IMG/VR virus record: IMGVR_UViG_3300033475_000012
Location: 1 to 64,000 of that record
Length of the DNA stretch: 64,000 nt
Reading direction: 5' to 3' (one strand)
From: a virus
Taxonomy: Duplodnaviria > Caudoviricetes
In this document: one piece after another, positions 7,887 through 45,518 of the stretch
Layout of the letters: each line of letters begins with the position of its first letter
Position numbering within the stretch: position 1 is the first letter of the stretch
Translations under genes and position numbers: made by a program
Notes under the pieces: generated by a model
Told to the model about the DNA's origin: nothing
The model's database searches: none
Seen by the model: the letters and a program-made list of their open reading frames with translations, nothing else

Positions 7887-8543
7887 CTATGAAAGAGATA
7901 AAAACAAAGCGTTGCCTCCTAATTTATCAGTTTGTACTGTGTTGGGATCAAAGGTTATTCCATTCAATGCTTGCTGGGTGTGCTGAAACATAGAAAATCC
8001 CCTGACGGGAATATCGTCGTCAAAATTATAAGCACGCCAATAAAACTTCACCGGTAGGTCATAAATTTGCGGCGGCGTCAAGCCGTTAGCCCAGCCAACG
8101 TATAGTCCTGGTAGATACCCGGCTACTGAGACCTGAGCCGCCCATTCTTTTACGTAAGCAATTACATCTACAGCAGCAGAGTCTTTAGAAACTCCTTCCA
8201 GATCCAGCCATACATTAACGCCAGAAGGTAGCCCTACAATTTCTTTACAATAAGCAGCGCAATAGCTCCCATAGCTTATTCCTAGCCCTGCTGTTGGATG
8301 CCAGCCATCTGGAGCGACGTGCTGCACTATGGCCAAGCAAAGTCCAGCATTTAGGATTCCTTGGGCCTCTCCGTTGGTCAGATTATCGCGTGATAAGTTC
8401 ACATCTCTTGGCACATATCGGATGCAGAAGGACTTCCCCGCATTCTTAAAGGCGGTTGCCTGAGTCTGCGAAATAGGCTGATTTACATCAAATCCATCTG
8501 CACCATTAGGAAGCGATTTAATAATACCCGATAGAGGTGTCAT
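7887..8543 (-). CDS. endolysin, DUF1906/Rv2525c-like (GH25-like) glycoside hydrolase
   Basis: 'GADGFD..Q', 'AGKSFCIRYV', 'VWLDLEG', 'GYLPGLYVG' motifs; at the end of the structural operon. Confidence 0.8.
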   Translation of the reverse strand: MTPLSGIIKSLPNGADGFDVNQPISQTQATAFKNAGKSFCIRYVPRDVNLSRDNLTNGEAQGILNAGLCLAIVQHVAPDGWHPTAGLGISYGSYCAAYCKEIVGLPSGVNVWLDLEGVSKDSAAVDVIAYVKEWAAQVSVAGYLPGLYVGWANGLTPPQIYDLPVKFYWRAYNFDDDIPVRGFSMFQHTQQALNGITFDPNTVQTDKLGGNALFLSLS

Positions 8544-8653
8544 TGTGCATCAAATTGAGAAAGTGTATAAAACAAGAGAGCCAATGACGCAATCAGAGTG
8601 AACAAACACCCTATAATGCGCCATTGGCGTTCCGATTTAGATTCTTCAGCCAT
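8540..8653 (-). CDS. 37-aa single-TM peptide; candidate holin/antiholin/lysis regulator
   Basis: MAEESKSERQWRIIGCLFTLIASLALLFYTLSQFDAQ; TGA overlaps endolysin ATG; starts 1 nt after upstream stop. Confidence 0.6.
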   Translation of the reverse strand: MAEESKSERQWRIIGCLFTLIASLALLFYTLSQFDAQ

Positions 8654-8654
8654 G

Positions 8655-9554
8655 TTAGTTGTTCAGGCCGTTGATGGGGCCAGTAACCGCCATTAGTTTA
8701 TTGGTTGAGGTATTATATCCTACCCCTACAACCAATTTGAAAGGCAATTCCGCATTAAATATAACCTGCGTTGATACCGTAAGGGCGGCCACACCAACAA
8801 TGCCAGTCCCAACAGCCCCACCCGGCCCTCCCAAAAGAGATACCCCAAATTTCTGATAGAACCTTTGCTTGGCCGCATCCCACACGTCATTCTCCCAGCC
8901 AATACCATAAACAACTGCGACGGCGGAAGTCGAAATGCTCAACGGTTTGAACGAAACACCATACAGAGCGCCGGCCCCTTGCAATCTCACTCCTTTAAAA
9001 TTTGTCCCCGGCGTGAGAGTGTCGCCTAACATTATCGCATGTGCTCTAGGGGTGGCTGAGATAGATATGCCGGCCGGATGAGCAATTGGGGCAGTGATGC
9101 TTTGCGCATGGCATACACTTCCCAAACAAATGAGTAAGATGATAATGCCGACTTTTGGGGACGCTTTTACTACTTTGCCCGTCGACTGTGCGTTTAACGT
9201 GCCATTCGCAATTTTGGCCGTTTTAGCCTTACTAAGATAACCCCACACTATCGGAACCGACAGAATAACAAAGGAAGTGATGGCGGCTAGTTCGCTGGAA
9301 TTTAACAATCCGGAACCTACTAGCAATCCTCCAGCGCCTTGCAGCAGTTGACGAACGAGGCTTTCCAATGTTTCTTCTGTAGCTGTGCCATTATAAATTG
9401 ACCACCCTATACTTCCGGCTGTGAGCATGCCGCCAGTAATTGTGTCCCATGTTGGCCCCAAAAGAGGATGTCCGAAAATGGTTTTACCAATGAGAAAGGT
9501 TCCTATCAGCGTCAACAATGCGCGGACTAAAGAACCAAGTGTTGAAGTGTTCAT
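8655..9554 (-). CDS. holin-like multi-TM protein fused to an internal signal peptide and beta-rich domain
   Basis: Duplicated 2-TM unit (SLVRALL.. / SLVRQLL..), then KVGIIILLICLGSVCHA|Q and alternating beta-strand-like segments. Confidence 0.55.
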   Translation of the reverse strand: MNTSTLGSLVRALLTLIGTFLIGKTIFGHPLLGPTWDTITGGMLTAGSIGWSIYNGTATEETLESLVRQLLQGAGGLLVGSGLLNSSELAAITSFVILSVPIVWGYLSKAKTAKIANGTLNAQSTGKVVKASPKVGIIILLICLGSVCHAQSITAPIAHPAGISISATPRAHAIMLGDTLTPGTNFKGVRLQGAGALYGVSFKPLSISTSAVAVVYGIGWENDVWDAAKQRFYQKFGVSLLGGPGGAVGTGIVGVAALTVSTQVIFNAELPFKLVVGVGYNTSTNKLMAVTGPINGLNN

Positions 9555-9831: not shown

Positions 9832-11556
9832 TCAATTATGGTAAAGTCTGCTTCCTCTATGTCTTAAAAAAGTATTTGACGGATTTACAGTGATCGTGTC
9901 ATAGGCTACATTTGTTTTCCACATTATATCAGTAGTGCTGTCTTTGAAAATATAGGGACCGGGAACAGATAATCCAGATATGGGAATATTAGCTCCCGTA
10001 TTAAATGGCATGACAGGCGTAACGGGGCCTGACACAAAAGTTACCACATTAAGATACTCTTTAGACCCAGACGCATATGATATGGAAGGCGTGATTGTAG
10101 CTGACGTAACGCCAGATAAAACTTGATTGGACGAATGTACTGCAGGGGCCGCTAATGTCCCATTATAACACCCTGTTCCCTGACTGCAATTGGTAGCTCC
10201 CGGATTGGCTATGCAATAAAAACAAGTAGGGGTGATAAGTGACCCACTGGTTATGGCAAAAGGAAATATTTGAATGGGATAAGGGATATTCACCATATCT
10301 GGATAGGTTCCATTTAGCCCCCCTGCTGGATAATCGCAAGAAGCCCTATTGTCCATTATTTGCCCCGACTTTCCGCGACCCCATGCCCACGATTCCCCCT
10401 TATTATTCACAAAAACAGCATTCCAGCAATTAGACGGACCCATATAACCACATACCCAATTATGCGTACCAGGGCATACGCTCACCCAAGAGGAAGTTAG
10501 GTATTCTCCTAATCCATTATCGTACGCATATGGTTGGGGAGTCGATCCAGCAGGAGGAGGACTGACAGAATATCCATTCATAGGATACATTTGTCCATTA
10601 CCGATTTCTCCGCATATATTATCTCCGCTAGATATAAGACAAGAATCAACACCAGATTTATTTCCGATTAAAAACACAGCCCCAGCATCCGCAAATGCTT
10701 TTTTGGCTAAGAAAGTACCCACCGAAGCAGAAATGAAAGATGTTATATTTTGTGGTGTATTGGATGTAGATGCGCTTGGACCAGCAAAATACTTTGGATG
10801 ATCACCAATCCCCAATGTCTCGCCGTCGTCTAAGACAATAACGCCAAAAGGACCCGCATCGGCTATATCAACCGCATATCTACCTGATGGCAGTCGGATG
10901 GTATCTGGAAGTGTATAAGGCACCGTTGGGCTACTTCCTCTCCCCAACTGCGCCTTATTGTTAGCTGCTGCCCAACTCCACACATGACCCTTACTGTCCA
11001 ACGCCAGTAATACATATTGTCCCGTTACTTTAATAATATGTGTTCCGTTGGGAAAAGTAGCCCACACAAAAGAAGTTTGATTAACCGCATTATCCGTTCC
11101 ATTACCATGCAGGCCGCCAGCTAGTTCGCCGGCTATTCCTACTTGTCTTCCTGTAGTACTATCGGTAGTTACGATTACATCTGTCCAATATGGAGAGGTA
11201 TTTGAAGCGGTACAATATAATTGAGTGACTGCCGGAAGTGCAGTCCCCGCACTATCAACAGTGATATTTATAGGGCCGCCACACGAAACGCCAAAAACAC
11301 TACCGCCGACATATAAATTACCAGGAGCGATAGGGCCAATATACCCGTCATCATGCGGGCCACCGAATATTTCGGCAACGTAACTCGGCTGTCCTGTACA
11401 AGACTGAGGCACGACATTTAAGATATGATACGCCTTGTGCGTTGACGCCCTATACACAAGATTGCAGTATTCCGCCAAATAAGGATGATCCACCGTGTCT
11501 GGGTTCTGACCCATCAAAATAGTTGGCAATAATAATATAATTAAAATAAATTTCAT
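9832..11556 (-). CDS. secreted RCC1-repeat-like/PKD-like protein, putative receptor-binding or accessory fibre
   Basis: Signal peptide MKFILIILLLPTILMG|Q; RCC1-like 'LALDSKGHVWSW...QLG' and 'SWAWGRGKSGQ'; C-terminal 'GPYIFKDSTTD..YDTITVN' PKD-like; Cys-rich. Confidence 0.6.
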   Translation of the reverse strand: MKFILIILLLPTILMGQNPDTVDHPYLAEYCNLVYRASTHKAYHILNVVPQSCTGQPSYVAEIFGGPHDDGYIGPIAPGNLYVGGSVFGVSCGGPINITVDSAGTALPAVTQLYCTASNTSPYWTDVIVTTDSTTGRQVGIAGELAGGLHGNGTDNAVNQTSFVWATFPNGTHIIKVTGQYVLLALDSKGHVWSWAAANNKAQLGRGSSPTVPYTLPDTIRLPSGRYAVDIADAGPFGVIVLDDGETLGIGDHPKYFAGPSASTSNTPQNITSFISASVGTFLAKKAFADAGAVFLIGNKSGVDSCLISSGDNICGEIGNGQMYPMNGYSVSPPPAGSTPQPYAYDNGLGEYLTSSWVSVCPGTHNWVCGYMGPSNCWNAVFVNNKGESWAWGRGKSGQIMDNRASCDYPAGGLNGTYPDMVNIPYPIQIFPFAITSGSLITPTCFYCIANPGATNCSQGTGCYNGTLAAPAVHSSNQVLSGVTSATITPSISYASGSKEYLNVVTFVSGPVTPVMPFNTGANIPISGLSVPGPYIFKDSTTDIMWKTNVAYDTITVNPSNTFLRHRGSRLYHN

Positions 11557-11590
11557 TCTAAAATCCTATTATGTAGCATGTTTTTATTAT

Positions 11591-13912
11591 TTACTCTAAA
11601 TACCAATTTGTAGATCCGGCTACTATAATCCTACTTATCCCAGCCGTTATAGTTAACGTAGTAACTTGAGATGTATCATATATATGATCACCAGATGCAG
11701 CATTTAGTGTGATGCTCGCAGAACCTGCATTCTTAATATAATATTTCTTCCCTTGAGAACCACTTAAAGAAGGAAGAGTCCATATTGTTGCCGAAGATCC
11801 GGTAAATACGTAATCAGAAATACCGGAAAGAGTTAGTGTTGTAGCAGAAGTTTCTGATAAATTAGTCTCAGAATTAGTGCTGAAAGAATTTATGACAACC
11901 CAAGTAGAGGCAATATCTTGAATTACATACCAAGTATCTGAATTTAAAGTGGTCAATTTAGTTGACAAATCAGGGAAATAGACATTTGATAAGAAAGACC
12001 AAGTATTAGTTCCCCCTAAATTATAAAAACTTATCTGCCTCCCACTTCCCGTAGCTGACGGAAGGGTTATTGTTAGATTAGATGAAGGAGCGCCAAGGTA
12101 ATATATAGGTACCCCTTCGGTAACTGTTAAATTTGAGCTAGTACTTGGAGAATTATATCCAAAATATAAACTTGTGAATAAATTAAAAATGCTCGTACCC
12201 CCGGACAAACTCAAAGTTTGACCATTCATATTTATGGAGGTTGATTTATTTAATGTTCCACCTAAAGATATTGTATCTGTTCCTCCAATAGGTCCGGTTA
12301 TTGTCAATCCATTTAATGCCTTAAGCGTATCTGTTGGCAAAGAAGGTGCAATCTTGGCAGCTATGGCGGACCATGTAAATCTACGCGTTGAACTGTCTGG
12401 CATCCATCCCATAAGACCAATTGAATTTGTCGTGTCTTGAGACATGCCAGTATATTTCCACGTTCCACTGCCGCCTAAAGCTATTGTTGTAGCAAAACCA
12501 GTTCCAGTTATGGTATTGGAGCTACTAAGAATGGACCCCGTTGTTATAACTTGCTGCAATGTTTGAGACCCCCCTCCCGATATAGCACCCTCGATCACAT
12601 TTCCCGAGGCATCCACATTAAGCGCATATGTTGGTGTGCCCGTATTTGTGCCTGAGCCATAACCAGTAATCGCCATCTTTCCACCCGAAGGTACTATGAT
12701 CAGTTTTCCGGCGCTGTTGGTCTGCCATGTGGTATAATGAGTGGCATCATAATGGGCAGCCAACTGCGGCTGAGTGGTGGACGTAATTTGGACCAACCCA
12801 GTAGAATTATCAATAGTACCGCCGACGAGAAATTTTTGCAATTCGGTGAACCGTGCAGCTTCTGCTTGTGAGCTGCCATTGGTGCGTGTCAGAATTTTTA
12901 AGCCCGCGCTATAATCCCCAGAGGTGGAATTGGCCTTGTACCCTTTCAACATTGCGCCGCCCGTATATTGAGGGGTCGTATTGAACTCGACGCCGAAATT
13001 GATCGTCGCTCCATTTCCAGCCGCCATGCCACTATTATCATTCAGCATCAGTGTTCCCGCATAGGGTTGTCCAGGCTCTGTGGCCAGAATCTCCATCGGT
13101 GAATATTGGGCATTGTTATCTGTAGAAGTAGACGGCGAGCCTACAAATAGATGCTTGACATTTGTCGTTTGGGTATTATCCAGCGATAACACCTGTAACA
13201 GAGCCGAAGGTGTGGCGGAGTTATTCGTCCAGAAATCCATCTCTCCGGGCATGTTAGTGGTAGACGGTGTGCCGGTCACCCGAGCGGAGATAAGGGCCGC
13301 TACCTGCGGTACGGTACCATTATAGCCGCTGAATTGAAAGCCACCCAGTGAGTCGCCAGAAGATGGAGTGCCAGGCGATGCAAATGAGCCACGGGTCTTG
13401 TAGAAATTGATATAGCTGCAGCCCGTTCCCGCGACCGATCGTTGAATCATAATTCCCGGCTTCAGCGCGCCGGACTCATTATGAAAAAGGTGAAAGTCCA
13501 TTTTCGGGGCAGTGCCGACATTCAACCCCAGAGCTATATTAGTCGGATCAAGATAATAGTTTCCAGACTGAGCAAGCAGTCCAGAACCATCCGTGTACAG
13601 AAGCTGATTGGCTGTAGATCCCGATACGCTGCCCCCTATGGCCATCCCTGCACCACCACCACCTCCCGAAGTGCCGTAGATGTTAACTGGATGAACGCTT
13701 GTTGTGATATAGTACAGGCCGCCAGTGATTGTCGATCCCAGACTATCCTGCACAGCACAGAGCATTGGGTAACTTGAGGACGAAGGAAGGTCCGAAACAT
13801 GCGTGTAGAGCGGGATAAATAACTTTCCTCCTTTCCCGCCCCAGCCGTAAAGCATCTGTGATCGCGCCGTAAACGCTATCGAACAACAGAGTATGAAAAG
13901 CAGCTTCTTCAT
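11591..13912 (-). CDS. tail-fibre-like protein with Sec signal peptide
   Basis: MKKLLFILCCSIAFTARS|Q; Gly/Ser/Thr-rich; 'LNVDASGNVI' and 'QTLQQVITTG' segments typical of Bacteroidota phage fibres. Confidence 0.7.
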   Translation of the reverse strand: MKKLLFILCCSIAFTARSQMLYGWGGKGGKLFIPLYTHVSDLPSSSSYPMLCAVQDSLGSTITGGLYYITTSVHPVNIYGTSGGGGGAGMAIGGSVSGSTANQLLYTDGSGLLAQSGNYYLDPTNIALGLNVGTAPKMDFHLFHNESGALKPGIMIQRSVAGTGCSYINFYKTRGSFASPGTPSSGDSLGGFQFSGYNGTVPQVAALISARVTGTPSTTNMPGEMDFWTNNSATPSALLQVLSLDNTQTTNVKHLFVGSPSTSTDNNAQYSPMEILATEPGQPYAGTLMLNDNSGMAAGNGATINFGVEFNTTPQYTGGAMLKGYKANSTSGDYSAGLKILTRTNGSSQAEAARFTELQKFLVGGTIDNSTGLVQITSTTQPQLAAHYDATHYTTWQTNSAGKLIIVPSGGKMAITGYGSGTNTGTPTYALNVDASGNVIEGAISGGGSQTLQQVITTGSILSSSNTITGTGFATTIALGGSGTWKYTGMSQDTTNSIGLMGWMPDSSTRRFTWSAIAAKIAPSLPTDTLKALNGLTITGPIGGTDTISLGGTLNKSTSINMNGQTLSLSGGTSIFNLFTSLYFGYNSPSTSSNLTVTEGVPIYYLGAPSSNLTITLPSATGSGRQISFYNLGGTNTWSFLSNVYFPDLSTKLTTLNSDTWYVIQDIASTWVVINSFSTNSETNLSETSATTLTLSGISDYVFTGSSATIWTLPSLSGSQGKKYYIKNAGSASITLNAASGDHIYDTSQVTTLTITAGISRIIVAGSTNWYLE

Positions 13913-16900
13913 TTATTTGCCATTGATTGAAAGGTGAAAAACATAAGTCGTCGATGGATCAAGCGGTATGGTCCCGGATGTGATTAATGGATAATTGAAT
14001 GATCCGGTATAAGTAGCCAGCGGCATTGCATCCCCTGCCAACTGCTTGGCTGCCGTGTTGGCGGGGGTGATCACTGGCGCGATACCTACTGTCGACCAAG
14101 CAATATCAAATCCATATACCATTATGGTGGCGCTAGCCGCCGGGCTTGTTCCGGTCGCGATAGTTATATCCCCCCCCAAACTGGTTGAGAAGCCGGATAG
14201 GGTCACCGTCCCGCCTGTACCCAAACCCGTTCCAGTAGAGAAAACAAACGCAGCCCCGCTGGCTCCTTTCGGCCATGCCACAGAGTAAGCAGTGCCGTAG
14301 TTGTGCTCGTAGTAATATCTTGTGGCAGCGGCCACCGTGCTGGTGGCGAAAGCAGGCCCGGGCCCCATTTCGTTCAGCGTCACATTGCTGTTAGCGCTCA
14401 GATCTACCGAATCACCGGTGAAATTGGTGCCAATGACATTGACCTGAAGCGGAAACGCGGCATTCACATATAGACCGTAGCTCGGAGTGAGGGTATTGGA
14501 GATATTCAGGTTCTCGAGCGTCACCTGCTGGTTTGCCAGAGTAGATTCGATCCGGATAAGAGATCCAACGTTGTGCTCGAACCAGGTTCCCCGCATCGTC
14601 AGCATAGAGACGCCTACCGTATTGGGGTTGGTAAAGTGGACACCGCCGGTATTTGTATTGTGCGTTGTTCCTTCATCGCTGATATCTCCGCCTTCGATGA
14701 TGATACCGCCTTGGGTTTGATTGACATTGAAAGCCCAGCTTGCGCAATTGTAAATGTGGCAGTGGACGAAGGTAATCAGGTTAGGAGCCACAAACCCACC
14801 GGGGGACCGGTTGATCGTGTCGGCATTGACTGCTATCGGGCACCATTTGATCAGCATATTATTAAACTGACCAGTAAGAGTACCCTTCAAATTTAATCCT
14901 ATGGAAGTACAAGAATCTATCGCTATATCGTTCCATTTAAACCAATAAATATATTGCAAATTCATTCCAATAGAAGCCTTATTATGCCCTTCTAAAAGCA
15001 TAGCACTAATGGGAGCATATCCATATCCTGGGGCATTCCCAACATTAGTTCCTGGAATAGTTATAAATGTATTATTATTCCATTTAATCATAGTATCCCC
15101 AACTACTATTTCAGATAGTATTGTATTGTTAATACCTGCCCCCATTATAGAAACATTAGGCATCCCAGTCATATCAAGAGAACTCCATGCCCATACTCCT
15201 GGTGGTATCCACACTGTTCCTCCTCCATGAGAAAAAGCAGAATCAACACATGCTTGAACATAAGGAGATATATCAGTTCCAGTACCGCTCATAGACATAG
15301 TTACGCCATAGTCAGTAACCCGGTAAAACGGCAACAATACTGTTCCTGTTCCGCTTGAGTTTATAGTAACCCCGCCTACATGAGTTACCGTGTCTATTGT
15401 CACATTTGTTCCAGCAAATAATTCTCTAATAGCAGATGCGTTTAAATTGAATAAAGGGAATCCTCCTGAAGGAGTATTGCTTAATGATGTCTGTATGCTT
15501 GATACCGGCGCTTGAATCACATTACCGGATACATCGGACTGAAGAAACGCTAAGGGTGTTCCAGGAAAAGAAGTTGCTGTTGTATAGTTATTTAGTTGGA
15601 CCTGCCCGGTTGAAATTAAAGTAATTCCAACGGATGCCCCAACAGATAGGCTTGATGAAAAACCACTAGCGCTTGCCAACGTTGCGGCTGCATCTGAATT
15701 AAATACTCGAGAAAAAACATGTGATGCGGCATTAGTTAGTGTACCTATTTGGTAGGTATTATTTGCCGAAAAGCTAATATTATTCCCCATTATAATTCCG
15801 CCATTAAATGTTTGCGGATTTGTCACCCATGTATTGCCATGAGCCAACGCCAAAGAAGCCACTACCGCTCCTGTTGTCGGAGTAATGTTCAACGTACCGT
15901 CTGAATTAGAAACAGATGATACCGTGCCGCCGCTGCTGCCTGTCGAATCTAATATTTCGTGTAATCTCCCACCAATCGTGAATTTGATGCTATCCACCCC
16001 TGGCGTACGCCACAATGTATCTAATCTATCGTTAACCGATATTACATAAGGAGTTCCTAAAGTTCCCGATCCCGTTAATGACCCATTTGATCCTGAAAAT
16101 GTGACAAGTCCTGTAATATTTGATAGTTTACCATTAAATGTATTCCAGTCTGTTGATAACAAATAACCATTTTGAGATGTTCCAGCAGCTTGCTGAGTAA
16201 TTGTTAAAGCATTTGCATTGGCAGAAGAATCCCATCCAATACCTGCTGAAGTGCTTCCAAATACTGTCTTGATGTTATTTGTATTTGGAATAGCCCATCG
16301 ATATCCTGTTCCGACATTAGAGTTTGTATTACCGCTTCCGCCGCCTCCCGTATTTGATATAATACCACCGGAAATAGATATCCCTGTACCGGCAGTCATA
16401 TTCACTAAATTTCCTGAATTATCATATCCGACAATAGTATTGGCTGAATTTGAAAAATTACCCAATAGACCGGAAAAGTTTGACGTAACAAGTCTAGTCC
16501 CCGTACCTGCCAAAGAATTAATACTGAAATTTCCACTATTGTCAATATTCGCCCGGTTGGATGAATTTGTTTGAAAAATCAAAGAATTTCCTACGGAGGA
16601 TAATATCAATGGTGTTCCGCTTATGGTTAACTGTCCTCCACCGCTACTAAAAGTGGATATGCCGCCACTTGTTCCTCCTATCAAAAGATTACCATTGCTT
16701 GTTCCCAAACTTGAACCTATCGACAATGTATTACTGGATGTGTTGTACAAGAATTGACCCACTCCGCCTAGTGTCCCAGAATTATTGAAAATAACTTGCT
16801 GATTGGAACTTGAAATGGCGTTCTGTTTATTCCCTATTTGTGATGGAGTTACATAAGTAGTTCCGCTATCTCTTTTTCGGATAAAGAAATTTCCCATAGC

Positions 16901-17446
16901 TGCGCTATCGGCATTAAACACCTTAGTTGTCCCGGAGATAGATTGAGTGATCCATAACCCCGGATTAACAGCAGAATCTACACTTCCGGAAGTATTGCAC
17001 GTTGGACACGAAATTACCCCTGTAGATTGATTGAAAGATATAGGAGATGTTCCGGATATGGCATTAAGGCCTACTTTGGTCGCCAATTGCCCGTAAACGC
17101 CATTTCGCATAGTGTCTACTGAAAACTTTGTAGCATAAGTAAGACTGTCTGAAAAAGATAATATTTGACGCCATGTATGTCCTCCTGAAATCACCGTGTC
17201 TCTATACCATAAATGCCTAGAGCTATCGTCGTATACAATTCCACCTAAAGTATCAAGGCCCGAATTTAACCCAAAACCATTTACGGGATTGAATCCATGT
17301 ATATGCGGGGCATACATATTCAAAAGAGCCCTCCAACGGGAGTCTTGTACGGTTACAGAAGAATTTGATCTGGGGGGCGCAAACGTCTGAGCGGAGGAAG
17401 TTATTCCAACGATCACCAAAATGAAAAGTATAATGAGTTTCTTCAT
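13913..17446 (-). CDS. tail spike/fibre with pectate-lyase-like beta-helix (depolymerase) and Sec signal peptide
   Basis: Start MKKLIILFILVIVGITSSA|Q at 17446, 1 nt after upstream stop; 'VTDYG...TD..YVQACVDSA...GGGTVWIPPG' beta-helix N-cap. Confidence 0.75.
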   Translation of the reverse strand: MKKLIILFILVIVGITSSAQTFAPPRSNSSVTVQDSRWRALLNMYAPHIHGFNPVNGFGLNSGLDTLGGIVYDDSSRHLWYRDTVISGGHTWRQILSFSDSLTYATKFSVDTMRNGVYGQLATKVGLNAISGTSPISFNQSTGVISCPTCNTSGSVDSAVNPGLWITQSISGTTKVFNADSAAMGNFFIRKRDSGTTYVTPSQIGNKQNAISSSNQQVIFNNSGTLGGVGQFLYNTSSNTLSIGSSLGTSNGNLLIGGTSGGISTFSSGGGQLTISGTPLILSSVGNSLIFQTNSSNRANIDNSGNFSINSLAGTGTRLVTSNFSGLLGNFSNSANTIVGYDNSGNLVNMTAGTGISISGGIISNTGGGGSGNTNSNVGTGYRWAIPNTNNIKTVFGSTSAGIGWDSSANANALTITQQAAGTSQNGYLLSTDWNTFNGKLSNITGLVTFSGSNGSLTGSGTLGTPYVISVNDRLDTLWRTPGVDSIKFTIGGRLHEILDSTGSSGGTVSSVSNSDGTLNITPTTGAVVASLALAHGNTWVTNPQTFNGGIIMGNNISFSANNTYQIGTLTNAASHVFSRVFNSDAAATLASASGFSSSLSVGASVGITLISTGQVQLNNYTTATSFPGTPLAFLQSDVSGNVIQAPVSSIQTSLSNTPSGGFPLFNLNASAIRELFAGTNVTIDTVTHVGGVTINSSGTGTVLLPFYRVTDYGVTMSMSGTGTDISPYVQACVDSAFSHGGGTVWIPPGVWAWSSLDMTGMPNVSIMGAGINNTILSEIVVGDTMIKWNNNTFITIPGTNVGNAPGYGYAPISAMLLEGHNKASIGMNLQYIYWFKWNDIAIDSCTSIGLNLKGTLTGQFNNMLIKWCPIAVNADTINRSPGGFVAPNLITFVHCHIYNCASWAFNVNQTQGGIIIEGGDISDEGTTHNTNTGGVHFTNPNTVGVSMLTMRGTWFEHNVGSLIRIESTLANQQVTLENLNISNTLTPSYGLYVNAAFPLQVNVIGTNFTGDSVDLSANSNVTLNEMGPGPAFATSTVAAATRYYYEHNYGTAYSVAWPKGASGAAFVFSTGTGLGTGGTVTLSGFSTSLGGDITIATGTSPAASATIMVYGFDIAWSTVGIAPVITPANTAAKQLAGDAMPLATYTGSFNYPLITSGTIPLDPSTTYVFHLSINGK

Positions 17447-17447
17447 A

Positions 17448-17885
17448 TTAAAACGTTTGAGGCCCATTGATGAATATCAAGAACAAATCTGCCGAAGTAT
17501 AAGTGCCGGGGATAAGAATTTGGACACCAGACACGCCTCCGACTATATCGGGAGCCCATGTGCTATTAGGATAAGATGGAGATGCGGAATTATAGGTTAA
17601 AAATCCTTGACCTTGATAATAAACAATCAGATTAAACCCAGACAAAGGATTGCCAGATGGTGGAATATATTTATTTGATCCATTTAAATCAGCCCCAGTA
17701 AACATTATAATTCCATTGCTGAAAAGCTGGTTATAAAGACACTGCTTAACCGATCCCCACGTACGGAAGGCATATCCCCCAGTCTGGCCTGCTACATTTA
17801 TGAAAAGGATTTGTTCGTTGTCGGCGGGGCACCCGGAGGCCAGCGGCGCTAGTGTAGAAAATTCTCCTTGACAAGGTGCTGCCAT
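17448..17885 (-). CDS. small structural protein, possible fibre adaptor
   Basis: 145 aa, beta-rich, directly upstream of fibre genes. Confidence 0.55.
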   Translation of the reverse strand: MAAPCQGEFSTLAPLASGCPADNEQILFINVAGQTGGYAFRTWGSVKQCLYNQLFSNGIIMFTGADLNGSNKYIPPSGNPLSGFNLIVYYQGQGFLTYNSASPSYPNSTWAPDIVGGVSGVQILIPGTYTSADLFLIFINGPQTF

Positions 17886-21429: not shown

Positions 21430-22001
21430 TTGCTTTGAATTAAATATTTTTTAGCTAAATCTGGATTGTTTAAAGAACGAACGTAGTCTTCCATGTTAAC
21501 TCCGAAGTCATATTTTTCTCCTGTATTGGTCGATCTATATGAAGTAGGGTAGAAGAGACGGCTTGTGATACTGCCTAACCAACCGTCCACCGGAGATACT
21601 TCTCGGTCAAGATAAGGACTAGTTCCACTTGCCGTTCTAAGACCTCTTTTTATGAAGGCAATTTCTTCCGGCTTTAGTCCGGGGAACCTATCCGTTTTTC
21701 TCAAAAGGTATTGCTCATATTGGATGTTTGGTATGATAGATGGATCAATGGCTCTATCTGGATTAGCGGCATTCCATTTTTTCAAATAGGATAACCCTAA
21801 GGTTTGATCCCTTTTGTCCAAATCAGCCTTCCCACCTACGCCTTCCTTTTGCAGGTAATCCAAAAAGTCGTTCCAATCCTTCCGCTGCATGACAGAAAGA
21901 GTCTTATACCCTTTTGGCGCGTCTTTGTATTCATCAGAAGGCGGTGTCCCCCCGCCGCCTTTGCCACCACCCTCTTCTGCCATATAGTAAAGTCTTATCA
22001 T
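21426..22001 (-). CDS. hypothetical protein with scaffold-like N-terminal leader
   Basis: MIRLYYMAEEGGGKGGGG; coupled to giant cargo gene and GNAT. Confidence 0.7.
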   Translation of the reverse strand: MIRLYYMAEEGGGKGGGGTPPSDEYKDAPKGYKTLSVMQRKDWNDFLDYLQKEGVGGKADLDKRDQTLGLSYLKKWNAANPDRAIDPSIIPNIQYEQYLLRKTDRFPGLKPEEIAFIKRGLRTASGTSPYLDREVSPVDGWLGSITSRLFYPTSYRSTNTGEKYDFGVNMEDYVRSLNNPDLAKKYLIQSK

Positions 22002-25000
22002 TCTGGATTTTCTTCGTTTTGACGGTAAATCTCGTCTATTTGCTGATTCATTTCATTCATGATTTGCCCTCGACGTTCGGCCTTTTCTTCTTTGGAAAGA
22101 CTTGTGTTTGTCTCCACTTCAGTAATTTGATCTCGATAAGCCTTTTGGGTAGCCACAGCTTGTTTATAATATCCTTCTGATAATGCGCCCTTTTTGCTGA
22201 ACCCTGGAAGATGGATGAGATAATCGGATGGGCGAAATACTTTACGCTTCATTGGGTTTCCGTTTTGATCCACATCCTGCCATTGACCCGAAGCGTATTT
22301 TTGCTGAATGCTTTGAATTGCGCCGCCAGCTAATGGCCCGGCTACTTTATCGATCATTGGAATCGAATTCATGATGTGGTTGATGTGAGTCAAGGCGTCA
22401 TCCGAAACCGCCCTTGCCGTAGACTCGCCATCTACTATTTTATTTTGATATACCTGAACCAGAGACAACCCAAACAATGCGGATTGAAGTTGGGGAGCGT
22501 GTTCCATTATTTTAGCCGCCGTCTCCGGAACCACCCAATCTCCTATTTTTATTTCAGAGGTCTTTATCTCTGGAACCCCTGTTTCCAATTCTCTTTTTAA
22601 CTTCTTTTGGTCTTCTGCCGTCTGCCCCTTATGAGCGAATCCGCCAAAGGCCGCATGACCCAAGACGGCCAACGCGTATATGCCTAGTCCAAATCCACCT
22701 TTACGGTAGGCCCTAACAATAGCAGCGGCCTTATCGGCATCCATTTTTTGCAACTGTTCTCCCAATTCCTTTTTGAACTGTGCTCTTTCATTTTCTCCCC
22801 ACTCTGACTGAAGGACTATTTTCTTTGCTTTTAAATATTCCTTGCCGGCAATCCAAGAGCCGGTTAATGCCCCTAGCGTATATTCCATAATCCCTTCGTA
22901 GAGCATATTAATAGGAACACGGGTAATAGCTACATCCGCCCGCATAAGGTAAGCCAACCCCTCTCCCAACTTTCTCGTTTTAGACCCTTCCGTACCAATT
23001 CGTTCTACGGCATTGGTGGCCGAATTCCATGCATCGGTTATAGCGTTACTCTCTTGATACTTGCCTCTTTCAAAGTCTTGGTAACTTTCATTAGCAAGTT
23101 CCAATATCTTATCAGCCTTTGATACATCTACTCCATTTTGTACGGCATATTCCAAGCGAGCCATGAACCCAGCAGAAAAGCTAAATCTTCCTGAAAAATT
23201 CTTTAATGCAGCATGAGAACGACCGAAGAAGTTGATGAGGTACGACCAATTATCTATATCCGACAAGGACCGTTTAGACAACAATGCCTGTTCACCTCTT
23301 TTGTCCCATGCTTCCCGGTCAAAATTGCCCATATTCCGTTCTAACTCAGTAGAACGATGAAGAAACACATCCCACCCTTCAGACAAAGACTTCCCTGAAA
23401 TAAAGTCATACATTTTATACCCAACGGAATTTACAAGGGCATCATTCTTAGCATTCTGCAATTGGCCCAATTTTTTCTCAGCAGAACGATATTCGTCCGT
23501 ATCTTTTCCAACGGCGTATTTGATTCGATTGACCTCTTTTTCTTGATCCTGAAAATCCCCTAATGCCTTATGGTATTTATCAGAAGCGTCTTGGTACATT
23601 TTACCTATCTTATCTTCGCTATACTGTCCAAGATATGCCTTCCATCCACGTTCTATTTGTTTTACGTTACTTCCTTCCCCGCCTGCCTTAGCTCGTTCGG
23701 ATACCGTCTTAGTAAAATCAGTAGGTATTTTTTCGAATAACTTACCTACAGTAAGTTTGGTGGCCGTTTCGATAGTAGGACGAATAACGGCGCTTCCGGC
23801 CACTTTTAGGAAAGTGATAGGACTTCCGATCAATCCGGCAACCTCAGCCCCACGCAAGAACTCCCATGCCCGTCTCATTCTGGTTTTGTTATCTTTCTGG
23901 AATGTCTTTTGACGGTTCTTATATATTTGACCAATAGCATTTTTCTCCCTTTCCAATTTAAGTAGTTCGGCGTCGGTTTTGGATAAGACAGTGACCGGCT
24001 CGTCCTCGTATTCCCCATTGTATATTTTTTTAAAATACATCTCAGCATCTCTCTTGGCTTTATCCTTGGCCCTTTTCAGTTTTATTTCTTGTTCTGATTC
24101 ATTCTTATCGGTATCGAATCCATCCACAGCCTTTTGTAAGGAGCGCCGAATGTCGGCAGCTTTTGAAATATCCCCGCTTGTATTTCTGTTGAATTCGCTT
24201 TGAAGACTTTTTAACAAGGACAACCCTCCATCCAAGGTTCGTTCTTGACTTAATGCCGAAGTTGGGTCTAAAACAATACCAGATGCGTCCAATTGAGATT
24301 TCAATTTTTTTAGGGCCTTTTCTGAATCCGTAGACAGTTCCCCTTTAGACAGCTTTTCTTCAATGGATTTTGAGATATCATTAAGTCGATCATTATGGGA
24401 TTTGGCTCGTTGATCATAAGAAGACTTCTTATACTTATCCTCCCCGGTAATTTTAATGCCCATTGAATCCATAAGATTCTTTCTCTCCCTTTCTTTGGCT
24501 TCAATGGTTTTATCCTCCGGTAACGGTTTACTACTATCTCTTCGAAATATATCCTTCTTATTTTTTAGGTCGTTGATATCTTTTTCAAGTTTAGCCAGTT
24601 TATCGAATTGGCGTTTCGCATCTTTAAAACCACTTTCCAATTGTTTCTTAGTCATCTGCTTAAAATCACCTTGCTTCAGATAGGCTTCCAGCAAACGGTC
24701 TTTTTCTACATCCGGAAGAATAGTTTTAAGTTGGTTCGCAGCTACGTCCAATATTTCATTAGCATCATGCAATCCTACATGAGAATTAATGTAATCCCGG
24801 ATAAGATTTTGGCCTACCATTTCGTTGGTAACGTCCATTACGCCATTGTTTTCAGCAAAGTCCTTTATTTTTTCAAAGGATTCGGCACGCATATCCTGTT
24901 TATCAAGAACGGCAAGTAGATTATCCGTAAACTGCTGCTTATTCCCCCCATGTTCTTTGATGAAACTATCTATGGCTTCGGCCAACGTTGCACCCTTCTC

Positions 25001-28000
25001 GACGGCCTGTGCTATAAATTCTATTACAAAGTTGACCGTTTGTTTAAATCCAGGGAATGGAACTGACGTTAATTGATCGCCTTTCATCTTTCCGCCACGT
25101 ATCCTATCGGCGAAGTCTTTCCCTTTTTCCTTCAAAGTCTTTTCACGCTGTTCGGCTTTGCTGAGTTTTCGGCCTTCTCTGGCCGTCTTTAGCTGTTTCT
25201 CATAGTCTGCCTTCACATCAGCCATTTGCTTGTCAAAGGTTTCCTGCATTCCTCTTTGCTTCAAATCGGCCTCTTTTTGCATTAAAGCCCTTTCCTGTTC
25301 CCATAGCCTAGCACTTTCATCCAATTCCTCTGGCGTCAATCGTTCACCACCTTTAGCTGCAAGCAATTCCATTCGGCGTAACTTCAAGCCCTCATCCGGA
25401 TCAATATTGGCCTCGGATTGGAGCATATACATAGCCCTACCAGTCTCTCCTTCTGGATTGGTTACACGGGCGATGTTGTAAAGATCATTACTCAATGTAG
25501 CCCATGTAGCCACAGCCCCCATGCGCTCCAAGTTGTTATCGCTGTCCCATCCCGGAATCTCAGCCATTCTCTTTTCAGTCTCATTTCTGAGCACATTGAA
25601 TACGGCAATATCTTCAGATGTGGGATTGAATAATTCTCCGGCATTCAACCTATCCACAAAATCATTTACACGGGAACGCATGGCCTCATATAGCCTTTTG
25701 TCAGGATACATGGCCAATACATTCTTCATAGCATTTTGATACGTTTCAGTCCACTTCACTTTCTTGCGGCCCGAAAACAATTCTTTGGCACCCTTTATTT
25801 CCCGAAGTCGTTCCTTCCGAACGCTGGTAAATTCATCTTTTGGAGACTCCTTCGGCACACGAGGTTCGGAAGGAGGAAGAGGGGGAGCGGGTGGCGCCGA
25901 TTTTTCCGCTCCCTCCTTTTCGGTTAGCAGCGGCCCGGAGACTTCTTTCCCTGTACCCCCATCTGGCCGCCCTTTACCTTTCCCTTGGCTTTCTTGGCCC
26001 CCTTGCTTACCTTCGCTGCGTGGGGCATTGGGCTCTGTTTTTTCATCGTTTTCGATTTTTGGTGAAGAAATATCTTTTACCGGTTCTATTTTTTCTCGTT
26101 GAACTGGTTCATCAACTTTAACTGTTTCTCCTTCGGGAGTAACTGAAATTCCTGCATTGTCCATTTCTTTTCTTGCCCCTTCGTTTTCGTTGAGGAATTG
26201 TTCGAATGCTGGTTGTTCATTGGAGATTTGTTTTAGAGTTAATTCATAAGCCAAGTCTTCGGCCACTTGACCACGGAAAGTACGACGCTGACCATCCGGC
26301 GTTTCCAACTTTACGGCTACTACATTCCCATTCTTATCATGAACGATAGCCTTTAATGGGTCTTCATTTGGATTAACGTAATCTTTCCCACGGACGGATA
26401 TTTTACCTTCAGGGCTTACATCAACGACGGATTTTTCCGTATCGATGCCAAAATCTTTCAATGACCGACCACCGACCTCGTTGATGTTACCTAATTCATA
26501 TTCTCGATTACTGTTTTCTGGTTTAAATATTACCGTCTGTCCATCTTGGATGAAAGTTCCACGCTGACCCTTGTAGACACCTTTTTTATCCAACATTTCT
26601 GAGACGGTAATATTGTCTTCCGGAGCTATTTCTTGCCCCGTGCTGTCCGTTCGGCGATTGCCACGATCTGCTGGTGGCTGCGCTTCTTCTTCCCGTGGTG
26701 CGCCAACTCGTGGATGTTCTTTCCCACCTGCTTGTTGATCGCCTTCTCCGACTTTCCCTTTGCCTTCGGTAGCGGCATACGTACCTCCTTGTTTTATAAG
26801 TTGTTCAGAATGATCGGCTCCAAATTCTTTCATGGCCTCTTCTCTGGTGATTATTCTCCCATCAGATGTTCTAAACATCCCATCTCGTTCTCTGTCAATT
26901 TGAGACACATCTTCACCAGCTTGTCTAGCTTTTTCTATTGCTTCACCATGATCATTACCTTCGTAAACCTTATCACCTATTTTAATAACAGCGCTTTCTA
27001 CTTTAGGCGCTTCCGGATATAGCATTTTGGCCATATCAACGATGTCATTGCCGTATTGCTCTCTGGCTGATTTTTCGGCATCGGGTAAGTCCGACTTAAT
27101 GGGATTGCCATCCGAATCTCTCATTATACCATGTACTTGATCGGAAACTGTCTTGAAAAATTCTTCCGGATTGGATTTGGCCACAAAGTAAAAAGCTCCC
27201 AATTTTTCTTTGTTAGCCTCGATAAGATCAGCACCGTGTTCGGCTAAGTCTTTACCTGATATTTCAGCCTCTCCCTTGGCTGAAACGAAATCTTTATAAC
27301 GTTGAGCAAATTCTGGATCATCTAAAAAATGAGCGCCTTTGATCGTTCCCTCATTCATCCATTGCTTGATTATCCCCGTAGATTCAAGGTCTTTAAAGGA
27401 TTTGTCGGACAAGAAAATAGGCGTCCCTTCAGAACTCATCAAATAATACCCTTTAGCATCGCCATTGGCGGCAGCTTTAGCCTGTTCTCTATAATCCTTG
27501 GCTTTATCTTTGTATACTTCAGCCAATGTTTTATTCCCTTCTTTTTGAGCCTGTTCGGAAAGATAATCGTGCTGATCGGCCAATGCTAAATTATGAGCCT
27601 GATAAAGGTCATTAACATTAGTCCGGTCTAAATTTCCGGATTTAATGTTCCTTTCAAGATTTGTGCTATAAAGAAGAGTGTTTTTTAAATCAATCAGCTG
27701 CCTTTTACCCTCATCATTTAATCCATCAACATCAATATTGATGGTATGAAGTTTCAACGCATCTCTCAAATAATTTCCATTCCCGTTCATTTCCTGTCCC
27801 AAGGCATAATTTTGAGACAATTGATTTTTGAAGTCCCCTTCAGCAGTCGTTAGTTTTTGCCAATTTTTTAGATTGTGCATGTATTGTCCCGGTGCATGGA
27901 TTAAAGAGAACCCAGCACCCATAATCATGGCATTGGCTACATTATCCTTGAAATCATCGGACTGCATATAGTCGAAAAAATCAGTAGGATGCCCTTGCGC

Positions 28001-40813: not shown

Positions 40814-43800
40814 TTATGATACGCTAATACTACCTCCACCCGAAGAATTCGACGATGTGTATATCCCGGTGAAAGAAACAGAACCAGGAACAGGCATTAC
40901 AAACTGCAAAGTATTCGACCCATTGCTGGCAATTACAGTCCCCTCTCCTGATACATTACATTCCATTGTATAAGTGCCTCCGGGAGGTCCAGAAGCGTTC
41001 ACTGTGACGGTCACAAGCATTCCAACAGGGGCAGATATAGTTCCACTTCCGTTTGGAACGGACGTGCTATAAGATGTAGTCCCGCTTATGCTTGGCGTAC
41101 AAGACAATCCGGTAGACGAACCGATAAGACCCGTTGATGAATTCAAGTTATAAATAACTCCGCTATAAACCACATAAGTACTTCCTGTTTGAGGATTTGT
41201 CAGGGCGCTGTCTGTATACAAAGTCAACCCTACTGAGAAGTTGCCATTAGTGTATAATGTCACACTAGAACCGCTGCATATGGTCGATGTGCTATTGCCA
41301 AGCACATAAGTTCCTGCCGTTCCTGTAGTACAATTGCTTCCGGTATTTGCACCAACAAGACCTGTGGAAGAATTAAGGTTATAGATAGCGCCAGATGCGG
41401 TAGCTACATAGGTAAATGTCGTTACAGGAGTGGTCAGACCCGCGTCCTGATATAATGTTACTCCGGTTCCAAAATTAGTGCTGGAATAGAGCGTTACAGG
41501 CGTCCTCGGACAGATATTGGCAATTACCGTATCCAGCCTATAGGAACCGCTTACTACAGGAGTAGCCGGGGTAGTTACCTGATTGACAAATTGATTGCCG
41601 CCACAGTTATTGGTAATGCCGATATCGTAAGTGGTTCCGGCTGTTAGACCGCCAATAACATAGGGAGAAGTGCCGGTTATAGTTCCATTTGGACCGATTG
41701 TCAGATTGCTGGTAGATGTTAGCCAAGCCGTCGTTCCAGTTGGTCGATATTGAACCGTAACCGTCTGAGACGAATTTGGTGTTGCCTGCCATGTAACTCC
41801 ATACACTCCAATAGTAGTTGTATTGACGGCGGACACATTGATTGCTGAAATCTCTGCGCAGCTTCCCGGAGTAGTACAATTAATGGCACACCAAGCAGTT
41901 TTTACAGAGGTATATTTACTAACTGCTGCAATTACAAGATTGGCGATCTGCAAGTCAGTTAATCCGGCACATGAACCTCCTAATGTTCCATACAATACAT
42001 CCGAATTACCAAAAGAACCGGCAGAATTAAGAGGGAATAACGCTTGTAGTTTAGCACATGTAACCCCTGTTATAGTATTGATCCTATTAGCCAGATTGCA
42101 GATAGAATTTACTGCCGCCACATTGAAATCGTTCTGCTTATTGGCTGCGGTTAAATTTGTTGTCTGAATATCCCCATTATAGTCAAAGTAGCATAACGCT
42201 AAATTATTTCCTATCCCAACTTGCGCGGCAGTGATCTGGCAGATATAATCCACCATAGCCTGCAAGAAAGCAATGACGCTTTTATTCGTCTTTTGGAAGA
42301 ATATAACAGTATTACCAGATGAGAGTGACAATGACATGCTTACCGGACCGAAAGTATTGGCGTTTGTAAGCACACTGAAATAAGACCCGTTTGAGCTATT
42401 ATCAAATGCCACCTCGTAGGAACCTACGGATAGTCCATTAAGCCATGCTTCTACACCCGTTATATTGCTCACCAACAATCCGGCAGGAGCATTGTAAGTT
42501 GTCGATCCTACAATGATATTGTTTATAGTCACATTTGCCCCCGGAACAAGAATGGAAAGGAAATAGTTTACTGAGCTTAGATCAATGATGCACTTACCAT
42601 CCAAATTAGTTAGGTCAATATTAACTGTAGCACTGATTAAAGCGTTTAGCTGGGCTGTAAGTGTTGGACTAGCACCAATAGCGGTTAAAATAGCCGAAGA
42701 AAGATTTGCATAATTGAACGTGATAATATATTTTACCGTATTGGCGGTTGCCGTGTTTACGGTTACGGAAAAAGTGTTATCTCCATTACCGTTTACAACT
42801 TGGTAAATACTTGAAGTAATGGCAAACGTCTTTGTATTTCCCACTACGGTTGGAGAAGGCACACTTGTTCCACCAGCGCCAGTAAGAACAATATTTGTTA
42901 CGGAAGGATTTAATGGGGTTGGCTCGTTTTGCCCCATTGCGTTAGGTCCGCAGTTGCAATTAAGTTGTTTTTTAATGGATTGATAAGCCCATTCCGAATC
43001 CATCCCATTCATCTCCTGACCTAATCCAAGGAAAAAAGGAAGTTCTACTTCATCCAATTGTTGCGCAGCCCTTTTCCCAAGTGCGTTGTCATAGTTTTTT
43101 ATCTTCATTCGATACAAATCTTCTATACAACAGAGTAGGTCAGAAACTTTGTTAGAACAAGTAATGTCGAACTGCTGATTCGTTACGTATGAAACTAAAA
43201 CATACGTGTCATCCTGAAGATTATAAGTGGCTATGCTTGTGCATGACAGCATATACCTGCCCGTGTAAACGACACTATTGATGAAAGGAGTAACGGAAAA
43301 TGAAACTGCTGGAATTGTACCAGTTGGATAATTTAAAGTCCCTGTTTTAAATATAGACTGAGGTGTAAGGTTATTATAGACAAATACAGTGAACTCCTTG
43401 ACCAAAATATCATTGTTCGTACAATCAGCCCTTAATTGAAACATCCCGCACACATACCCAGACTCCTGAAAATCATTAGGCTGACATATCTTTTTATAAA
43501 TGGGAGGTATGGTGTAAACGGTAGAATTTTGGTCTTGGATAGCAGCCGATATTTGGTAGGTCTGAAATAAAAAGGCATAATTAAGACTAGACAAATCAAT
43601 CGTATAGGATGTTGTAGTTCCCGGATTTGGTATTTGAGGCGAAGACCAATTTATGGAAGCGAGAATAACACCCTCCTGATCTATAACACTAAATGCCACT
43701 CCCAAAGTATTAGACAATCCGGTTCCGGTAGTAAATGGAGACAAAGAGAATATCATCCTCTTATTGGCTATATCCACTGTAACGGAATACCCGAATGTAT

Positions 43801-43834
43801 TTATGTTTGCTGAACCTATGGTTATCTGTGGCAC
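40814..43834 (-). CDS. large virion structural protein with FN3-like domain and duplicated C-terminal module
   Basis: GTG start; FN3-like 'VTWQ...TVQYRP...GLTAGTTYDIGIT'; two copies of 'TLY...TLY.D..LT.P...IYNLNSSTGL.G..TG..C'; no signal peptide. Confidence 0.65.
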   Translation of the reverse strand: MPQITIGSANINTFGYSVTVDIANKRMIFSLSPFTTGTGLSNTLGVAFSVIDQEGVILASINWSSPQIPNPGTTTSYTIDLSSLNYAFLFQTYQISAAIQDQNSTVYTIPPIYKKICQPNDFQESGYVCGMFQLRADCTNNDILVKEFTVFVYNNLTPQSIFKTGTLNYPTGTIPAVSFSVTPFINSVVYTGRYMLSCTSIATYNLQDDTYVLVSYVTNQQFDITCSNKVSDLLCCIEDLYRMKIKNYDNALGKRAAQQLDEVELPFFLGLGQEMNGMDSEWAYQSIKKQLNCNCGPNAMGQNEPTPLNPSVTNIVLTGAGGTSVPSPTVVGNTKTFAITSSIYQVVNGNGDNTFSVTVNTATANTVKYIITFNYANLSSAILTAIGASPTLTAQLNALISATVNIDLTNLDGKCIIDLSSVNYFLSILVPGANVTINNIIVGSTTYNAPAGLLVSNITGVEAWLNGLSVGSYEVAFDNSSNGSYFSVLTNANTFGPVSMSLSLSSGNTVIFFQKTNKSVIAFLQAMVDYICQITAAQVGIGNNLALCYFDYNGDIQTTNLTAANKQNDFNVAAVNSICNLANRINTITGVTCAKLQALFPLNSAGSFGNSDVLYGTLGGSCAGLTDLQIANLVIAAVSKYTSVKTAWCAINCTTPGSCAEISAINVSAVNTTTIGVYGVTWQATPNSSQTVTVQYRPTGTTAWLTSTSNLTIGPNGTITGTSPYVIGGLTAGTTYDIGITNNCGGNQFVNQVTTPATPVVSGSYRLDTVIANICPRTPVTLYSSTNFGTGVTLYQDAGLTTPVTTFTYVATASGAIYNLNSSTGLVGANTGSNCTTGTAGTYVLGNSTSTICSGSSVTLYTNGNFSVGLTLYTDSALTNPQTGSTYVVYSGVIYNLNSSTGLIGSSTGLSCTPSISGTTSYSTSVPNGSGTISAPVGMLVTVTVNASGPPGGTYTMECNVSGEGTVIASNGSNTLQFVMPVPGSVSFTGIYTSSNSSGGGSISVS

Positions 43835-44528: not shown

Positions 44529-45518
44529 CTATTTTAATTTGTCGGTGATTTGTTTGAGTTGATGAGCGGCCCGATATGCAACGGGATGAACAGGATGATC
44601 ATACACCCATTGTACCATTGAATCTCCCTTCGCTTCGATACCCTCAGCAAGGATAGTCTTTTTATCTTTACCGGCTACCAGAACTCCGTCTTTAGTTGTG
44701 TCCAAAAGTCCGTATGCCTTGGCCTTGGCGAAGGTATCAGACACCTCCTGCTTATGGCCTTTTACCTTGTTCATGAACTCGGTTGGAACCGAATCGGCCA
44801 GGCCCATCAAAGCATCAAAAAGAAGGTCGTCGTGAATTTCAGCATTATGGGTAAGACCCTGAACTATGCCATAAAGGTTACGGAGAGAATCACGGTTAGA
44901 AGCCGCATTCTTTACCAACAGGATACATTCGCCTTTGTCCTCGATAGCCTTGGAAACCATTTTCAATTCCTGGCCTTCGTTTTTCTCCTTGTACATATAG
45001 GAGATATGGCTAGGACTTTTGGAAATGCTGTCCTGATTATAGGCGTGGTTCTTGATGAACAAAGTTTTGTATTTGTCCTGCTGTTCGTCGAACTCGTTCT
45101 CGCCACTGAGCAATTCCAAGAAATATACTTCAGCGGAATTCGCGTCGTCGGGATTGATATTAGAATCGGCATTCAGAACAAGGTTCTGGTAAAGCAAATC
45201 CAAGGTTTCATACCCCTTAAGATACCGGGTCTGAATCAGCGTCCCCCGGGGATCTCCCCATTTAAGGAACTCGATCTCACCACGGTAAGCAGAATCCTTT
45301 ACATCTACCGGGTTGGAAGGAATCTTTCCATCGATCTTTCGTACGGCCCAGTTTTCGGAAAGATTAGGGATGCCGCATACACCCCGTCGATTGACTACCT
45401 TCCCGGACAGGATACCTTCTTGGTGGCGCGTTTGTCCGCTGCCCTTTTCAAGGAACCCTGTTTCAATATACGGCGGCCGGGGATCTCCTGCGATTACGGT
45501 ATATAGTTCTTTAGCCAT
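44529..45518 (-). CDS. conserved head-module protein following MCP
   Basis: 329 aa immediately downstream of MCP, as in crAss-like gene order. Confidence 0.6.
   Translation of the reverse strand: MAKELYTVIAGDPRPPYIETGFLEKGSGQTRHQEGILSGKVVNRRGVCGIPNLSENWAVRKIDGKIPSNPVDVKDSAYRGEIEFLKWGDPRGTLIQTRYLKGYETLDLLYQNLVLNADSNINPDDANSAEVYFLELLSGENEFDEQQDKYKTLFIKNHAYNQDSISKSPSHISYMYKEKNEGQELKMVSKAIEDKGECILLVKNAASNRDSLRNLYGIVQGLTHNAEIHDDLLFDALMGLADSVPTEFMNKVKGHKQEVSDTFAKAKAYGLLDTTKDGVLVAGKDKKTILAEGIEAKGDSMVQWVYDHPVHPVAYRAAHQLKQITDKLK

Follow-up and report, generated by a model that had tools for sequence, protein, structure and literature searches.

Why should neighbouring genes of a tailed phage encode proteins that begin with a signal-peptide-like leader and also carry a protein glycosylation motif well above chance? 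This question is raised by the 64,000 nucleotides analysed here (the window; positions 1 to 64,000 of IMG/VR virus record IMGVR_UViG_3300033475_000012, Duplodnaviria, Caudoviricetes), in which three open reading frames (ORFs), encoding spike-like, fibre-like and RCC1-like proteins, are together enriched in the tripeptide D-[ST]-[AILVMT]. This is the sequon of the general protein O-glycosylation system of Bacteroidota, reportedly described by Fletcher et al. in 2009. The best explanation, and in our opinion probably the correct one, is that the proteins are exported and have been under selection for O-glycosylation by the host. The features concerned, together with an internal control, are as follows (positions are those of the window; aa, amino acids):

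13913..17467 (minus strand): spike-like protein, 1184 aa, 14 sequons
17390..17446 (minus): putative signal peptide of the spike, MKKLIILFILVIVGITSSA, followed by a Gln codon at 17387-17389
17246..17254 (minus): sequon 1 of the spike N-terminal domain, DTL, Asp72 of the spike ORF
17192..17200 (minus): sequon 2 of the spike N-terminal domain, DTV, Asp90 of the spike ORF
11591..13912 (minus): fibre-like protein, 773 aa, leader MKKLLFILCCSIAFTARSQ, 5 sequons
9832..11556 (minus): RCC1-like beta-propeller protein, 574 aa, leader MKFILIILLLPTILMG then Gln, 6 sequons
40814..43834 (minus): control, Ser/Thr-rich protein of 1006 aa without a leader, 2 sequons against 3.2 expected

In the spike the leader (Met8 to Ala26) and Gln27 precede a conserved N-terminal domain (N-domain); a middle part rich in Gly, Ser, Thr and Asn comes next, and the C-terminal part weakly matches a rhamnogalacturonidase. 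Its leader and that of the RCC1-like protein have a basic n-region (a single Lys in the latter), a hydrophobic core free of charges and, just ahead of Gln, a site of small residues; the fibre leader, as delimited here, has Gln as its last residue. Gln directly behind the cleaved leader is the Q-rule of Bacteroidetes (PMC5837995), and the Gln of the spike family matches it. None of the three proteins matched the type IX sorting domain (NCBIfam TIGR04183 and TIGR04131) at E <= 0.1.

Sequon numbers were compared, protein by protein, with 20,000 composition-preserving shuffles. The spike has 14 sequons against 3.73 expected (standard deviation 1.83), a number reached in 0 of the 20,000 shuffles, and the RCC1-like protein 6 against 1.66 (p = 0.004). 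Pooled, the three leader-bearing ORFs contain 25 against 7.99 (standard deviation 2.69), with a maximum of 22 over the 20,000 shuffled runs and a Poisson P of ~1e-6; composition alone is thereby ruled out as the cause. Asp lies inside a sequon in 25 of 87 cases (29%) in these ORFs and in 58 of 1218 (4.8%) in ORFs without a leader (Fisher p = 7e-12). The hand counts of an earlier note on this DNA proved exact (14 of 38 Asp in the spike, 5 of 24 in the fibre, 6 of 25 in the RCC1-like protein and 2 of 30 in the control), and a recount agrees that nine of the first ten Asp of the spike precede Ser or Thr. That note ended the spike at 17446, which corresponds to the Met8 start; the ORF itself reaches 17467. 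The excess over shuffled expectation, which that note had proposed to test, holds for the set as a whole and separately for the spike and for the RCC1-like protein; in the middle fibre taken alone it is not significant.

The specificity of the excess was assessed in the five leader-bearing ORFs of the whole genome, with their leaders removed. Two of these, of 577 and 130 aa, lie outside the window, as does a membrane-anchored ORF:

73131-74864 (plus): lipoprotein-like leader ORF, 577 aa, 5 sequons against 1.9 expected
75491-76027 (plus): membrane-anchored ORF, 178 aa, 3 sequons against 0.8 expected
76310-76702 (minus): leader ORF, 130 aa, 5 sequons against 0.53, with 5 of its 10 Asp in sequons

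In the five ORFs D[ST][AILVMT] occurs 33 times against 10.3 (3.2x, z 7.6). Looser variants are not enriched: D[ST] followed by any other residue stands at 0.9x, the reversed motif at 0.88x and the permuted one at 0.87x. Nor does the excess survive replacement of Asp (E[ST]h 0.57x; N[ST]h 1.0x) or of Ser/Thr by Ala/Gly (0.46x). For the 65 leaderless ORFs the ratio is 1.24x. In the Bacteroidota system Asp is required and Glu not tolerated, a hydrophobic residue or Thr comes next and only non-cytoplasmic proteins are modified (PMC12871550), which also agrees with what the earlier note had stated of the sequon. At the level of the motif, the excess in the leader ORFs matches these rules.

The pattern recurs in homologues, as the earlier note had suggested should be examined, both in the spike N-domain family and in the RCC1-like family. 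Relatives of the spike match only its first 5-24%; beyond this they carry other domains, for example GDSL esterase or DUF5907. Among the first 18 relatives, 17 have a leader followed by Gln. These 17 hold all 280 sequons, against 92 expected for the 18, and the eighteenth has none. In the non-homologous C-terminal parts of the 17 (residue 301 to the end) 197 sequons were found against 67.8 (z 16) and no control motif exceeded 1, so that the excess was not inherited as one block. When the mature N-domain was used in a full HMMER scan, 80 further representatives (50%-identity clusters) were obtained, 74 of which have a leader by rule and four of the other six by eye. The 74 rule-flagged members contain 877 sequons against 275.9 (3.18x), and 97% of those of at least 400 aa exceed 1.5x. 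A leader is missing from just two members, whose counts are 3 against 11.1 and 0 against 1.8.

Within the N-domain itself the Gln behind the leader is invariant (49 of 49 aligned family members). In this 49-sequence alignment the Asp of sequon 1 is likewise invariant and the tripeptide is DTL, DSL, DTI, DTV, DSV or DSI in 46 of 48 homologues; sequon 2, judged by its commonest tripeptides, is kept as a sequon in about 44 of 48. The two best-conserved residues of this phage-specific domain are sequon Asp, and as read from the alignment the pattern is conserved while Ser and Thr, and Leu, Ile and Val, interchange at fixed columns. The 12 homologues of the RCC1-like protein (38-69% identity), 11 with a leader and one whose public call starts within it, contain 82 sequons against 21.2. 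Three sequon columns are invariant or nearly so in this family, and its divergent members have gained sequons at new columns in a lineage-specific manner. The distinction between exported and other proteins is also visible within whole related virus records: leader ORFs hold 36 sequons against 12.0 in one (G001) and 36 against 10.5 in a second (G003), whereas the remaining ORFs hold 49 against 47.8 (1.02x) and 63 against 66.2 (0.95x). In both records the leader ORFs run consecutively right behind the spike homologue.

An excess that is motif-specific, confined to leader-bearing proteins, conserved and independently gained is what selection for host O-glycosylation predicts. The suggestion that selection has added sequons to these proteins is well borne out by this combination, which includes independent gains in non-homologous domains.

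Phages outside this lineage provide a comparison. Long tail fibres of T4 alone show a mild excess of 1.7x, but T4 gp34-37 pooled with lambda J and the side fibres have 22 sequons against 18.7 (1.18x) and no control motif stands out, which led us to reject the idea that fibres are always rich in this tripeptide. Leaderless proteins of Flavobacterium phages elemoF and FCL-2 stand at 1.15x and 1.02x and those of Bacteroides phage B40-8 at 1.39x. These three phages are without leader-bearing fibres, and the idea that all Bacteroidota phages behave in this way was also rejected. B40-8 does have, right after its endolysin, an ORF of 201 aa whose N-terminus is a membrane or leader segment and which holds 5 sequons against 0.83 (L022:15801-16406).

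According to the explanation that we favour, the three window ORFs and the two leader ORFs outside the window would be exported by the Sec pathway of a Bacteroidota host. Their leaders would be cut by signal peptidase I, or in the lipoprotein-like ORF by signal peptidase II, which would expose Gln; the general O-glycosylation machinery of the host would then add a glycan to the sequon Ser or Thr in the periplasm, and selection would hold the sequon at about three times its chance frequency, including the two almost invariant sites of the spike N-domain. The likeliest role of the glycans would be to keep these large proteins stable or soluble outside the cytoplasm, as has been proposed for host glycoproteins. 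Should the proteins be tail fibres or spikes, as gene position and modular architecture suggest, their addition to the particle would need to take place outside the cytoplasm. Leader cleavage, glycan attachment and incorporation into the virion are all steps that we infer.

Several observations weigh against this explanation. Export and the glycan are both deduced from sequence, and the leaders were called by a heuristic rule and by eye. The host phylum is deduced from the relatives of the terminase and from the Q-rule. Taken alone, the middle fibre is not significantly enriched (5 sequons against 2.63, p = 0.11), and it has an alternative start: its second Met, residue 20, lies right behind the 19-residue leader (13856-13912) and is where the public gene call (754 aa) begins. 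With two starts, the gene could give both an exported and a cytoplasmic form. An AlphaFold2 model of the full-length spike, built from a 12-sequence alignment, has a confidence (pLDDT) of 33 and is unusable for judging whether the sequons are exposed. The genome also contains one clear non-exported outlier:

44529..45518 (minus): leaderless charged (Lys/Glu-rich) protein of 329 aa beside capsid-region genes, 6 sequons against 0.88 (P ~3e-4)

Its enrichment implies that causes other than glycosylation can raise the motif in single proteins. Finally, leader-bearing proteins of two Cellulophaga phages are depleted in the sequon. These are gp085-gp087 of phi18:3 (NC_021794; L011:6892-12584), with 3 against 9.8, and gp091-gp095 of phi10:1 (NC_021802; L012:4748-11779), with 5 against 12.9, each of which has a leader followed by Gln. 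Together they contain 8 against 22.7, a depletion of about three-fold (Poisson probability of 8 or fewer, 4e-4). The depletion implies that a glycan coat would be a trait of the lineage described here and no general property of exported phage fibres; departures from chance in both directions fit proteins that meet a glycosylation machinery.

The setting of their genes bears on whether the proteins are virion parts. The relevant features of the window are:

52746-54779 (minus): large terminase
7887..9554 (minus): lysis genes, directly downstream of the leader ORFs
8655-9554 (minus): holin-family protein, 2 of 4 Asp in sequons, 2 sequons against 0.34 expected
7887-8543 (minus): Rv2525c-like glycoside-hydrolase endolysin candidate

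Almost all genes of the window lie on the minus strand, including all those from the terminase through the endolysin. On that strand the large terminase is followed by virion-type genes, which include those for proteins of 1006, 1585 and 2698 aa, then by the three leader ORFs, the holin-family protein and the endolysin candidate. The leader ORFs thus sit between the large virion-type genes and the holin, and the order is the same in related records.

The strongest of the rival explanations, which we consider unlikely but worth taking seriously, accepts export and glycosylation and places the proteins outside the virion: they would be late periplasmic, surface or secreted enzymes, and the particle would have no glycan coat. 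Possible roles are those of receptor-destroying or capsule-modifying enzymes, superinfection exclusion or help in release. A Sec leader normally takes a protein out of the cytoplasm, the site of tailed-phage assembly, and the leaderless 1006-aa protein could be the real fibre. Against this, the Cellulophaga proteins introduced above show that purified particles of Bacteroidota phages can contain distal tail proteins with leaders. The gene runs that encode them, pectate-lyase-type proteins included, close the tail module, with the endolysin a few genes further downstream; GenBank notes on tandem mass spectrometry (MS/MS) proteomics describe phi18:3 gp085-087, and the phi10:1 run except gp095, as structural or tail proteins. 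The GDSL esterase domains of the spike relatives and the weak glycanase match of the spike itself might be expected of free enzymes, but a conserved N-domain followed by exchanged C-terminal enzyme domains (GDSL esterase, DUF5907 and others) is also the usual build of a tailspike. Proximity to the lysis cassette counts for this rival, and a late-operon position adjoining lysis genes also fits a fibre or tailspike. The other small leader ORFs, which lie beyond the structural block and are equally sequon-rich, favour non-virion proteins, whereas in related records no gap separates the spike gene from the large ORF ahead of it, or the gene overlaps the end of that ORF, which favours a virion part.

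Structural comparisons give weak leads in the direction of tailspike N-terminal modules. Protein-language features pointed to viral clusters and to T4 gp9/10_N and Mtd_N at 0.85-0.88, and a VIA-align comparison of the N-domain model (pLDDT 60) with 48,161 chains listed numerous N-terminal modules of tailspikes, with no Z above 3.5. A Foldseek search of the PDB with this model returned nothing at E <= 0.001, and sequence searches of the PDB with all three proteins returned no match. Gene position, modular architecture and these weak fold and feature leads suggest the label of fibre. A fuller version of the explanation by export and glycosylation is quite possible, although we would lean somewhat against it as a whole: the host-recognition proteins of this large uncultured lineage would pass through Sec, gain a pyroglutamate N-terminus and host O-glycans and become part of the particle at lysis or already in the periplasm. 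The virion would then wear glycans of host type, and the sequon content would be tuned by selection in both directions.

That the excess was simply carried over, the genes having been captured from sequon-rich host surface-protein genes with no selection on the motif in the phage, appears very improbable. Host non-cytoplasmic proteins are indeed enriched in the motif (PMC12871550), and enzyme domains like those at the C-termini are widespread in bacteria. However, no relative of the N-domain turned up in 185,579 species genomes of bacteria and archaea, which were scanned by pattern and not exhaustively, and the five loci that were found with this domain are all in viral records. The conservation of the two sequon Asp in the phage-specific N-domain, the sequons gained at new columns within the RCC1-like family and an excess spread across 78 divergent clusters also argue against carry-over. 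Marginally less probable still is an absence of export, the hydrophobic N-termini being uncleaved anchors, assembly tags or mis-called starts of proteins that fold in the cytoplasm and owe the tripeptide to some structural cause: the second start of the fibre, the one enriched leaderless protein and the T4 long fibres lend it something, but the excess is restricted to the exact motif at all three positions, goes hand in hand with a leader both across the ORFs of a genome and across the members of one family and is all but lost in the pooled E. coli phage fibres, and the invariant Gln would be left unexplained without signal-peptidase cleavage.

How far, then, does the explanation by export and selection for host glycosylation resemble what is known? 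Mycobacteriophage virions are reportedly glycosylated (Freeman et al. in 2023), by phage-encoded glycosyltransferases that are said to modify capsid and tail proteins in the cytoplasm. The likeness would lie in phage particles bearing glycans, which are only proposed here. The difference is that those are phage enzymes acting in the cytoplasm, whereas a periplasmic, sequon-directed system of the host acting on exported proteins is proposed in the present case; the confinement of the sequon excess to exported proteins points to such a host system rather than to one of the mycobacteriophage type.

The known substrates of Bacteroidota O-glycosylation are closer: they share the export signal and the D-[ST]-[AILVMT] motif, enrichment only outside the cytoplasm and the avoidance of Glu. 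Their sequon is usually almost fully occupied, sites introduced by engineering receive the glycan too, and Bacteroidota proteins outside the cytoplasm contain the motif more often than chance predicts (PMC12871550). Those described are all host proteins, and phages are absent from that review (PMC12871550); here the genes belong to a phage late operon and the sequon density is about three times chance across a whole phage protein family. The Cellulophaga phi18:3 and phi10:1 virion proteins share the consecutive runs of three to five genes with a leader and Gln, but have no BLAST similarity to the window proteins, and the sequon is depleted there and enriched here. Phages of Porphyromonas gingivalis encode proteins with Q-rule signal peptides, read as an adaptation to host secretion (PMC10367356). 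These have Bacteroidota-type leaders that expose Gln, as here, but they are products of small prophage genes of unknown function, are not fibre-like, and the paper is silent on glycosylation (PMC10367356). In full-text searches of the literature, no account turned up of phage fibres in Bacteroidota that are sequon-rich or O-glycosylated, and no paper described a route of host export and glycosylation for parts of a tailed phage.

The complete record is linear, 80,291 bp long and has a completeness estimate of 69%; the window is its first 64 kb. Its terminase is closest by BLAST to those of Flavobacterium podophages (25-29% identity), and in a BLAST search of a cultured-phage collection no phage shared the spike, the RCC1-like or a 488-aa protein. 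Searches of Pfam and PHROGs gave, for the three leader ORFs, the RCC1-like match and no other. Without its leader this protein has 14 Cys (2.6%), an even number that fits disulfide bonding outside the cytoplasm; the remaining leader-bearing ORFs are not Cys-rich, and Cys content as a second mark of export was dropped as uninformative overall (1.03% against 1.40%). The first ~70 residues of the 2698-aa protein (21998-30094, minus) are 68% identical to gp122 of Cellulophaga phage phi18:3 (L010:29310-29621), a separate protein of 103 aa encoded just ahead of that phage's 1935-aa virion protein. The phage also has a glycosyltransferase block with a GT2-like gene:

63090-63797 (minus): GT2-like gene of the glycosyltransferase block

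Homologues of this gene (35-42% identity) are present (G001:C1:15171-15827; G004:C1:9097-9768) in two of four related incomplete virus records that also encode sequon-rich leader-bearing fibres.

If the proteins are glycosylated, phages of a main gut, soil and marine phylum would be applying a post-translational system of their host to their own exported proteins, and this would be the first sequon-directed glycosylation of phage proteins. The host O-glycosylation genes would then be a determinant of phage fitness and host range. If the proteins are also fibres, the assembly of a tailed virion would be partly extracytoplasmic. The sequon excess itself is a cheap, sequence-only marker and provides independent evidence that the signal peptides of phage fibres are used, and it could help to assign uncultured phages to Bacteroidota hosts.

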